Below are positions 7,453 through 8,187 of a stretch of 11,002 nucleotides of DNA, in pieces. The first letter of the stretch is position 1. The number at the start of each line of letters is the position of its first letter. The position numbers were made by a program, and so were the translations under genes. Source of the DNA: a virus (Duplodnaviria > Heunggongvirae > Uroviricota > Caudoviricetes); IMG/VR virus record IMGVR_UViG_2541047680_000013. One strand, written 5' to 3'. Below the pieces are notes generated by a model. The model saw only the letters and a program-made list of their open reading frames with translations. It was not told the origin of the DNA and did no database searches.

Positions 7453-7733
7453 ACGATATAGCATCAATCCAAGTAAAAATGCGCTTTAATTTCACATTAA
7501 CTTACAGCCATTGGTATACAATTAGGTATACGCACAAAAACTGAATTAAACAAAATCGTTAAAAATCAAAGCAATATAATATTTATTCAAACTCCGCCAG
7601 CCCAATCATGATTGGACGGTGTAAGGACAACACCAACAAAAACAGGAAGTTAGAAGTCTCAGCAGGACACCGACCAGACGGTGAGGAGACATAAAAGGAT
7701 ACGCAAAGGAGCCGCGGCTCCGAAGTGAAATGA

Positions 7734-7757
7734 AAGCCCGCTGATGCGGGCTTTTTT
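7734..7757 (+). terminator. Rho-independent terminator in the non-coding region downstream of crr
   Basis: AGCCCGC (7735-7741) / GCGGGCT (7746-7752) stem, 4-nt loop, T-tract 7752-7757. Confidence 0.6.
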
Positions 7758-7989
7758 GCTTCTTCTCTTTAGCCTGATTCGACACTCTCAATGCGGCCAT
7801 AAACAACAACCCACTTTTCTTATACCGTAGCCTGTCCCCCTCTTCCTGCTTTCTAACCATAACAGATGTGAGCGTTTGCTATGAGCGATATATAGTCATT
7901 CGTACCCTCCGATACTAATCATCACAGAAATTAATATATTCATTCCTTACTGAAAAGCTATGAAGTAGATATATAGGATTGGGGCGCGT

Positions 7990-8187
7990 ATGGCACTGGA
8001 CAGTTATGCATCTCCGAATATTATTCCGGAGCTAAGACAACCGAATGCCGCAGCAGGTAAGATCACGCTAGGGGGGCTGGACAGAATGGCTGTTACGCCC
8101 AGTGTGAAGAAAAGAAGGCTAAGTATGGTAGAATTTCCATACGCACAGACCTTGTTATCCGACTATACAGCCTGGAAGGCACTATGA
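7990..8187 (+). CDS. Small hypothetical ORF (65 aa) possibly co-transcribed with the downstream 262-aa gene
   Basis: Its stop overlaps the next ATG (ATGA at 8184-8187). Weak GGGG RBS. No recognisable motif, so it may be spurious. Confidence 0.3.
   Translation: MALDSYASPNIIPELRQPNAAAGKITLGGLDRMAVTPSVKKRRLSMVEFPYAQTLLSDYTAWKAL

Follow-up and report, generated by a model that had tools for sequence, protein, structure and literature searches.

Where does a P4-like satellite end, and to which genome does the DNA beyond its edge belong? We asked this of the virus record IMGVR_UViG_2541047680_000013 (Caudoviricetes), in a stretch of 11,002 nucleotides that we refer to as the window. The region under study, window positions 7453 to 8187, begins just after crr. 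A reading of the sequence made earlier, without database searches (the sequence-only reading), suggested a prophage-host junction (attR side) here, together with a small RNA (sRNA) gene of about 170 nt or protein-binding sites. Our comparison of occupied and unoccupied sites indicates that the region is very probably the right attachment site (attR) of a P4-like satellite of approximately 11.5 kb, integrated in the 3′ end of the transfer-messenger RNA (tmRNA) gene, ssrA, and followed by displaced host DNA.

That the window carries a P4-like satellite is indicated by its open reading frame (ORF) layout, its Rfam matches, and its identity to phage P4. Three ORFs of 190, 166, and 244 amino acids on the minus strand are followed by one of 777 amino acids at 4757-7090 (+), and the P4-like gene set psu, delta, sid, alpha (primase-helicase), and crr is present, with the ORFs so named in sibling elements. 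The CI-type RNA immunity region known from P4 lies at 3021-3306 (+), where the Rfam families C4, isrK, and c4-a1b1 (the a1/b1 target family) exceed their gathering scores. A Vis/AlpA-type gene of the element is located at 2696-2962. Positions 7050-7446 share 93% identity with alpha and crr of phage P4, and the homology ends at 7446, the end of crr, so that all of the studied stretch lies outside the part shared with P4.

We searched 5,426 complete Escherichia coli genomes for the studied stretch. Only four match all of it, and at least 80% of it is covered in just 49; many more match only from window 7586 on, with matches that start inside annotated ssrA. At the unoccupied site of strain UTI89, ssrA ends ...GGGTTCAACTCCCGCCAGCTCCACCA and is directly followed by ATCATGATTGGACGG..., 99% identical to the window from 7605 on. 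In UTI89 and in many other genomes the two flanks adjoin, ssrA running directly into the sequence of window 7605-8180. Occupied sites are found in avian pathogenic E. coli (APEC) E12053 (98% identity; locus L002, ssrA at 3395-3757 and int at 3941-5134) and in PK6 (99.3% identity over window 1-7756; locus L052, ssrA at 777-1139 and int at 1324-2517). Gene order in both is smpB, ssrA, integrase, two cargo genes, psu, delta, sid, ..., alpha, crr, attR, and trailer. Alignment of attL (the left attachment site), attR, and the empty site, together with the end of P4 homology, bears out the junction: the right boundary of the satellite is at approximately 7604, and the element does not continue unbroken past 8000.

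The same comparison explains why no integrase had been seen. The observation is correct for the window, which begins approximately 3.9 kb to the right of the point at which siblings have an intact ssrA with an adjoining integrase; the gene is missing here, in all likelihood, because it lies beyond the left edge, at the element's opposite end. In the siblings, the integrase shares 59% identity with IntA of CP4-57, a cryptic P4-like prophage of E. coli K-12. In strain RM10740 (L004, 485-2545), the satellite sits in tandem behind the end of an LLS-like prophage, in that prophage's displaced ssrA fragment and not in the live gene; it thus seems that a target of approximately 25 nt of ssrA is enough.

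The sequence-only reading had reported no tRNA-type attachment core, and this proved mistaken. In the alignment of attR, attL, and the unoccupied bacterial site (attB), the 19 nt at 7586-7604 (+) (TTCAAACTCCGCCAGCCCA) align, with indels, to the last 23 nt of ssrA, TTCAACTCCCGCCAGCTCCACCA, at the integrase-distal end of the element. They form the attR core, a displaced and degenerate copy of the ssrA 3′ end whose source is a tmRNA gene and not a tRNA gene. Neither ARAGORN nor Rfam detected a tRNA or tmRNA gene in the window; ARAGORN finds nothing because merely 19 nt of the tmRNA gene remain. The corresponding remnant at the end of CP4-57 is annotated in MG1655 as psaA, a pseudogene.

The core is also unstable in a patterned way. 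The allele in the window lacks T357 and three further bases relative to ssrA; it recurs in other complete genomes (100% match over 91 nt) and is therefore not a sequencing error. Across 32 sibling junctions (L002, L004-L033, and L052), the sequence is invariant up to ...ACTCCGCCAGC and then divides into at least 10 alleles that are nested deletions of TCCACCA, with T357 retained in a single junction. The endings seen (at the equivalents of window 7597-7610) were TCCACCA, CCACCA, CACCA, CCCA, CCA, CA, C, and none. Some of the deletions extend into the host trailer, and the flanks are almost identical. Judged from this allele series, the last 7 nt of the core are likely the strand-exchange region and a deletion hot spot of the displaced copy. 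The micro-deletions may record abortive recombination or, alternatively, selection for elements that are no longer able to excise.

Between crr and the core lies the attachment (P) arm of the satellite, at 7447-7585 (+), which belongs to its integration module. This segment is common to the ssrA-integrated P4-like siblings L002, L004, and L052 and to 29 IMG/VR loci and is missing from the unoccupied site of UTI89. It contains two tandem 12-bp units, GGTATACAATTA and GGTATACGCACA (7513-7536, +), which we propose as arm-type integrase-binding repeats. The heptamer GGTATAC, at 7513-7519 and 7525-7531, accounts for the GTATAC direct repeat recognized earlier; it occurs five times in the window, against 0.49 copies expected, and its tandem units end approximately 50 nt to the left of the core. 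In three siblings, GGTATAC is found four times just upstream of the int start (the P′ arm), as two tandem and two inverted copies with variable spacers.

The layout has precedents. The P4 record X51522 annotates an "attP arm sequence repeat," with the heptamer GGGGGCA, in a matching arrangement in the phage attachment site (attP): on its crr side, two tandem 12-bp units that are separated from the core by 53 nt, likewise a distance of about 50 nt, and, at the int start, tandem and inverted units. P4 also shares the order alpha, crr, P arm, core, P′ arm, and int. It differs from the present element in its core, the 3′ end of a tRNA-Leu gene (leuX), and in its heptamer, and past crr the two show no similarity in sequence, the integration module having been exchanged. 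CP4-57 has arm repeats that differ in sequence from GGTATAC (AGGCCCA and GGGACCA) in a phasing that matches that of the GGTATAC units. A P4-type attP architecture, with arm repeats on both sides and inverted copies at int, can thus be assembled with the P arm from the window and the P′ arm from the siblings. The match in layout with P4 and CP4-57 leads us to read 7513-7536 as arm-type integrase sites; although the architecture itself is apparent, binding is a prediction. In this reading, the tyrosine integrase of the element would contact the GGTATAC arm sites through its N-terminal domain and act on the core through its catalytic domain. The proposal that the region contains protein-binding sites therefore fits the GTATAC repeat, with its P4-like arm architecture, but not the two palindromes, which are RNA hairpins of the host trailer (see below). 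Other repeats within 7440-8200 were weak two-copy matches only.

Further copies of GGTATAC lie outside the satellite, in the defence island to its right, at 8687-8693 (−), 9783-9789 (−), and 10280-10286 (+). Locus L002 likewise has extra copies, at 15238-22748; its total is 14, where 1.7 would be expected. The AT-rich composition of the area may be part of the reason for the excess.

What, then, is the DNA to the right of the core? The simplest reading of 7605-7757 (+) is host DNA displaced by the satellite: the 3′ trailer that natively follows ssrA, together with the intrinsic terminator of that transcription unit. This segment matches approximately 4,200 of the 5,426 E. coli genomes at 90 to 95% identity, and the match abuts or overlaps annotated ssrA in 26 of 40 evenly spaced hits. 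In most genomes the matches end at 7756-7757, with conservation stopping right after the T-run of the terminator. A scan of species-representative genomes with a 21-mer from the second palindrome yielded 12 loci, and the trailer is present in eight other enterobacterial genera. It is immediately preceded by an intact 3′ region of ssrA in E. whittamii, Klebsiella indica, Raoultella, Pseudenterobacter, and one of two Leclercia loci (L041). In Leclercia L043 what precedes it is a displaced fragment that carries the final 28 nt of ssrA and an intact core, and the copies in Mangrovibacter, Atlantibacter, and two Citrobacter species lie behind degenerate cores of the attR type. K-12 has a matching core variant and downstream sequence at the right end of CP4-57.

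In unoccupied genomes, the trailer (approximately 150 nt, with five hairpins and the ssrA terminator at its end) would be co-transcribed with tmRNA; both this transcription and the subsequent processing are predicted from its position in the locus. The satellite supplies a short trailer of its own, a hairpin and an intrinsic terminator, right after the regenerated ssrA CCA at attL (L002, 3758-3830; L052, 1140-1210; L051, 657-735), and this trailer has no sequence relation to the native one. Because the element brings its own trailer and terminator, the native trailer is stranded 11 kb from its promoter.

We aligned 17 distinct copies of the trailer and derived a consensus structure with five hairpins. 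Its 38 pairs are formed in 96% of cells, compared with approximately 40% in slid controls, and compensatory changes on both sides were seen at 10 pairs, compared with 0 to 6. None of 500 column shuffles reached the observed covariation score, and the fold of the trailer has a z-score of −3.5. Hairpin H1 (7602-7615, +) is the perfect palindrome CCAATCATGATTGG, located correctly by the sequence-only reading. Its first bases are the CCA end of the (pseudo) tmRNA, and the hairpin is unchanged in the unoccupied UTI89 site as ...CTCCACCAATCATGATTGG, with 94% of cells paired and no covariation. In H2 (7618-7634, +; stem GGUGU/ACACC, loop AAGGACA), both partners of two stem pairs are altered, in 6 and 9 of the 17 sequences (UA, AU, CG), and the GGAC of the loop is invariant. 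H3 (7656-7690, +) has an outer stem GUCUC/GAGAC, an inner stem ACCG/CGGU, and the loop ACCAGA; five of its pairs show compensatory changes, and the inner helix is paired in all 17 sequences (100%).

The fourth hairpin, H4 (7702-7727, +), consists of the palindrome GGAGCCGCGGCUCC at 7708-7721 and an extension, CGC/GUG, that covaries (GU/GC, CG/UA). This is the second palindrome noted earlier (GGAGCCGCGGCTCC), which exists as described but lies one base to the left of the position given for it, 7709-7722. H5 (7732-7757, +) is a predicted rho-independent terminator, that of the ssrA transcription unit, with a 10-bp stem, a 4-nt loop, and six T residues; the terminator scan found it on both strands. 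The strong terminator of the sequence-only reading is thus present, with its stem at 7732-7755 and its T-run extending to 7757. Its stem also shows compensatory changes (GCCCGC/GCGGGC versus GCCCAC/GUGGGC). In K-12 and PK6, the stop codon of the convergent gene ypjA lies approximately 10 nt past the terminator, which faces ypjA in those lineages. By these comparative measures, the trailer has the marks of an RNA structure under selection; no Rfam family matches it.

Copies of the trailer are also carried by phages. The temperate phages LLS (L035, 2482-2675) and phiNP (L050, 1-180) have the ssrA 3′ end (a "tmRNA pseudogene") and a copy of the whole trailer with its terminator next to attP, and phage Ayreon (L049, approximately 1490-1615) keeps a trailer remnant. 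In phiNP, the first hairpin and the terminator have been replaced and H2 to H4 retained; the stems of the phage-borne trailers are maintained by compensatory changes. These phages differ from the satellite in that their crossover lies further upstream in ssrA (in the T-arm region) and that they carry the full trailer, whereas the satellite brings a short, unrelated one with its own terminator.

It is possible, although we doubt it, that the trailer is a leftover of decayed ssrA-integrating temperate phages of the LLS/phiNP type and not ancestral host DNA. Beside attP, LLS and phiNP have the whole trailer together with the terminal 39 or 25 nt of ssrA, trailers diverge by 8 to 10% among E. coli lineages, which is above what is usual for core DNA, and RM10740 has a prophage and a satellite in tandem at the ssrA site. 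However, the trailer directly follows ssrA in several genera, and its structure is under purifying selection in host and phage copies alike. The idea also concerns the origin of the trailer rather than its function and is compatible with a satellite junction followed by displaced host DNA.

A role for the trailer beyond termination is possible. We consider it rather unlikely, on present evidence, that the trailer is a conserved and previously undescribed five-hairpin RNA of the Enterobacteriaceae, co-transcribed with tmRNA and copied by phages, that has a function of its own, either in 3′ maturation of pre-tmRNA or in trans, for example on CsrA via GGA motifs. We found no description of an enterobacterial ssrA trailer RNA in the literature, of which our coverage of older work is incomplete. 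RNAs from tRNA 3′ external transcribed spacers, such as 3′ETS-leuZ, lie between the 3′ end of a stable RNA and the operon terminator and can be released by processing. The ssrA trailer resembles 3′ETS-leuZ in location; by this analogy, a stable or trans-acting form of it is a candidate only.

A more specific form of this idea, that the trailer is released from pre-tmRNA as a trans-acting RNA (titrating CsrA, or acting as a sponge in the manner of a tRNA 3′ external spacer) and is switched off when an island inserts at ssrA, also seems unlikely. It would account for five hairpins that are conserved with covariation across genera and maintained in phage copies, and for GGA motifs at five positions conserved in at least 15 of the 17 sequences, including one in the H2 loop, which is invariant. 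The GGA enrichment is nevertheless marginal after allowing for composition (7 versus 4.3 expected; P of approximately 0.05), and many lineages, K-12 and O157 among them, seem to pay no price for having the trailer separated from ssrA. The best Rfam hit of the region is to PrrB/RsmZ, but at 20.4 bits (E = 0.022) it is below the gathering score of 44. At gathering thresholds, no Rfam family was found in the studied stretch, and a permissive search gave subthreshold hits only. We also considered the trailer as a titrating RNA of the CsrB/RsmZ type (PrrB_RsmZ, clan CL00106) and rejected this candidate, which scores below the gathering score and has one GGA in a hairpin loop only.

A stand-alone sRNA gene of approximately 170 nt, running from the TATAAT hexamer at 7575-7580 (+) to the terminator at 7757, had been the suggestion of the sequence-only reading, and we regard it as very improbable. 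The hexamer is there, 25 nt upstream of the start of the conserved RNA, and a conserved structured RNA with a strong terminator does occupy 7605-7757. Neither the promoter scan nor the comparison of siblings, however, supports TATAAT as a promoter. It has no −35 partner, and the scan found no consensus promoter on the plus strand at 7000-7990. The hexamer lies within satellite DNA, is missing from the native locus, and is not conserved among the siblings, which have TACAAT, TAAAGC, or TAAAAT. In unoccupied genomes, the conserved block begins precisely where tmRNA ends in CCA, and no promoter separates the two, so that the native promoter would be that of ssrA. The lack of an Rfam family above threshold, in a covariance-model search for known sRNA families, also counts against such a gene.

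Very improbable, too, is a reading of the two palindromes (7602-7615 and 7708-7721) as sites at which dimeric proteins bind DNA, such as operators or integrase sites of the core type, and not as RNA hairpins: both are perfect over 14 bp, which is rare by chance in 728 bp, and the first overlaps the att core, where recombinases act, but both are unchanged in satellite-free genomes, the neighboring helices keep pairing while their sequence changes, the signature of RNA structure, and several attR alleles and phiNP keep the rest of the trailer although H1 has been replaced there or cut into by a deletion.

Several points weigh against a satellite junction in ssrA followed by the native trailer, or limit the detail in which it can be drawn. 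The window includes neither attL nor int, and the occupied architecture is borrowed from siblings that are 98 to 99% identical. No consensus site for integration host factor (IHF; WATCAANNNNTTR) was found between the arm and the core, the sole match in the window being at 10608. The attR core differs from ssrA at several positions, which complicates a simple crossover model, and the copy in the window could be one that is no longer able to recombine. Binding of the integrase to GGTATAC and transcription of the trailer, in the occupied or the unoccupied state, are both deduced from sequence. Finally, the invariance of the H4 inner stem is partly imposed, because this stem was the search pattern; it is intact also in phiNP and Ayreon, phages found via BLAST.

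We also considered whether the region encodes protein. It is AT-rich (GC content of 0.33 to 0.46), as had been noted, and the further claim that it is non-coding holds for 7453-7989; beyond lies a candidate ORF of 65 amino acids at 7990-8187, which overlaps the start of the next gene (ATGA). The relatives of this ORF are all near-identical and all from E. coli, with none outside that species, and it has no Pfam or PADLOC family. Close RefSeq relatives have no annotated coding sequence between alpha and the gene for a 262-amino-acid protein. An 84-amino-acid ORF on the minus strand (7606-7860) has no Pfam family and overlies the conserved RNA structure. A 28-amino-acid ORF from an ATG at 7608 was rejected; it is not conserved and is stopped after four codons in Klebsiella indica.

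Past the terminator, at 7758-8183 (+), the DNA is lineage specific, as seen from the genome matches, most of which stop at 7756-7757. It forms the leader of a defence island and includes the start of the 65-amino-acid candidate ORF; K-12 and PK6 have ypjA after the terminator, and the window lineage has other DNA. The 262-amino-acid protein encoded at 8184-8972 (+) contains a DpnII/MboI-type restriction endonuclease domain and is related to the "Helical-REase" effectors associated with prokaryotic Argonaute (pAgo) proteins. At 9564-10370 (−) is a clear homolog of the PD-T4-3 defence gene (PADLOC, 453 bits) with a LEM-3-like GIY-YIG domain. Defence genes to the right of 7757 fit the description of the tmRNA locus as a defence hotspot (PMC10121019). 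Similarity to the closest genomes breaks at window 78/79, at the edge of the satellite cargo hotspot beside psu, and again at 10430, which points to mosaic exchange on both sides (window 1-78 and 10430-11002).

P4-like satellites sit in the tmRNA hotspot of E. coli (PMC10121019), and the junction described here, a satellite in the tmRNA gene, is of an ordinary and already known type. CP4-57 is likewise inserted in the ssrA 3′ end, and its attR has the core variant ...ACTCCGCCAGC-CCACCA, without T357, followed by a matching trailer and terminator. It differs in being a decayed 22-kb island without the P4 set psu, delta, sid, alpha, and crr, whereas the element here is a complete P4-sized satellite, and the window attR lacks three further bases relative to that of CP4-57. 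CP4So of Shewanella oneidensis, with which our comparison follows the published description, is also an element with a P4-type integrase in ssrA whose attR lacks the acceptor-stem U, which is lost on excision; it differs in belonging to another genus, in being a 36-kb island, and in its excision under cold and H-NS control (PMC5148205).

These islands suggest what excision of the satellite may do to its host. When CP4-57 excises, T357 (the U in the G·U pair of the acceptor stem) is lost and tmRNA is inactivated (PMC10107115); the corresponding outcome, inactivation included, was found for CP4So in Shewanella (PMC5148205). By analogy with the CP4-57 experiments, excision of the satellite would leave a defective tmRNA gene. 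ARAGORN called a shifted, shortened tmRNA in simulated excision products, although function is not decided by such a call. If excision damages tmRNA as it does for CP4-57, carriage of the satellite would be tied to ribosome-rescue capacity.

For annotation, these results fix the right edge of the satellite and assign the palindromes and the terminator to the host ssrA flank and not to satellite functions. The conserved structure of the trailer and the series of attR micro-deletions are the parts worth following. If the trailer does have a function of its own, satellites and islands at the ssrA 3′ end would disconnect this RNA from its promoter, so that integration and excision would switch both the trailer and tmRNA, and every island at this very busy integration site would alter the trailer.

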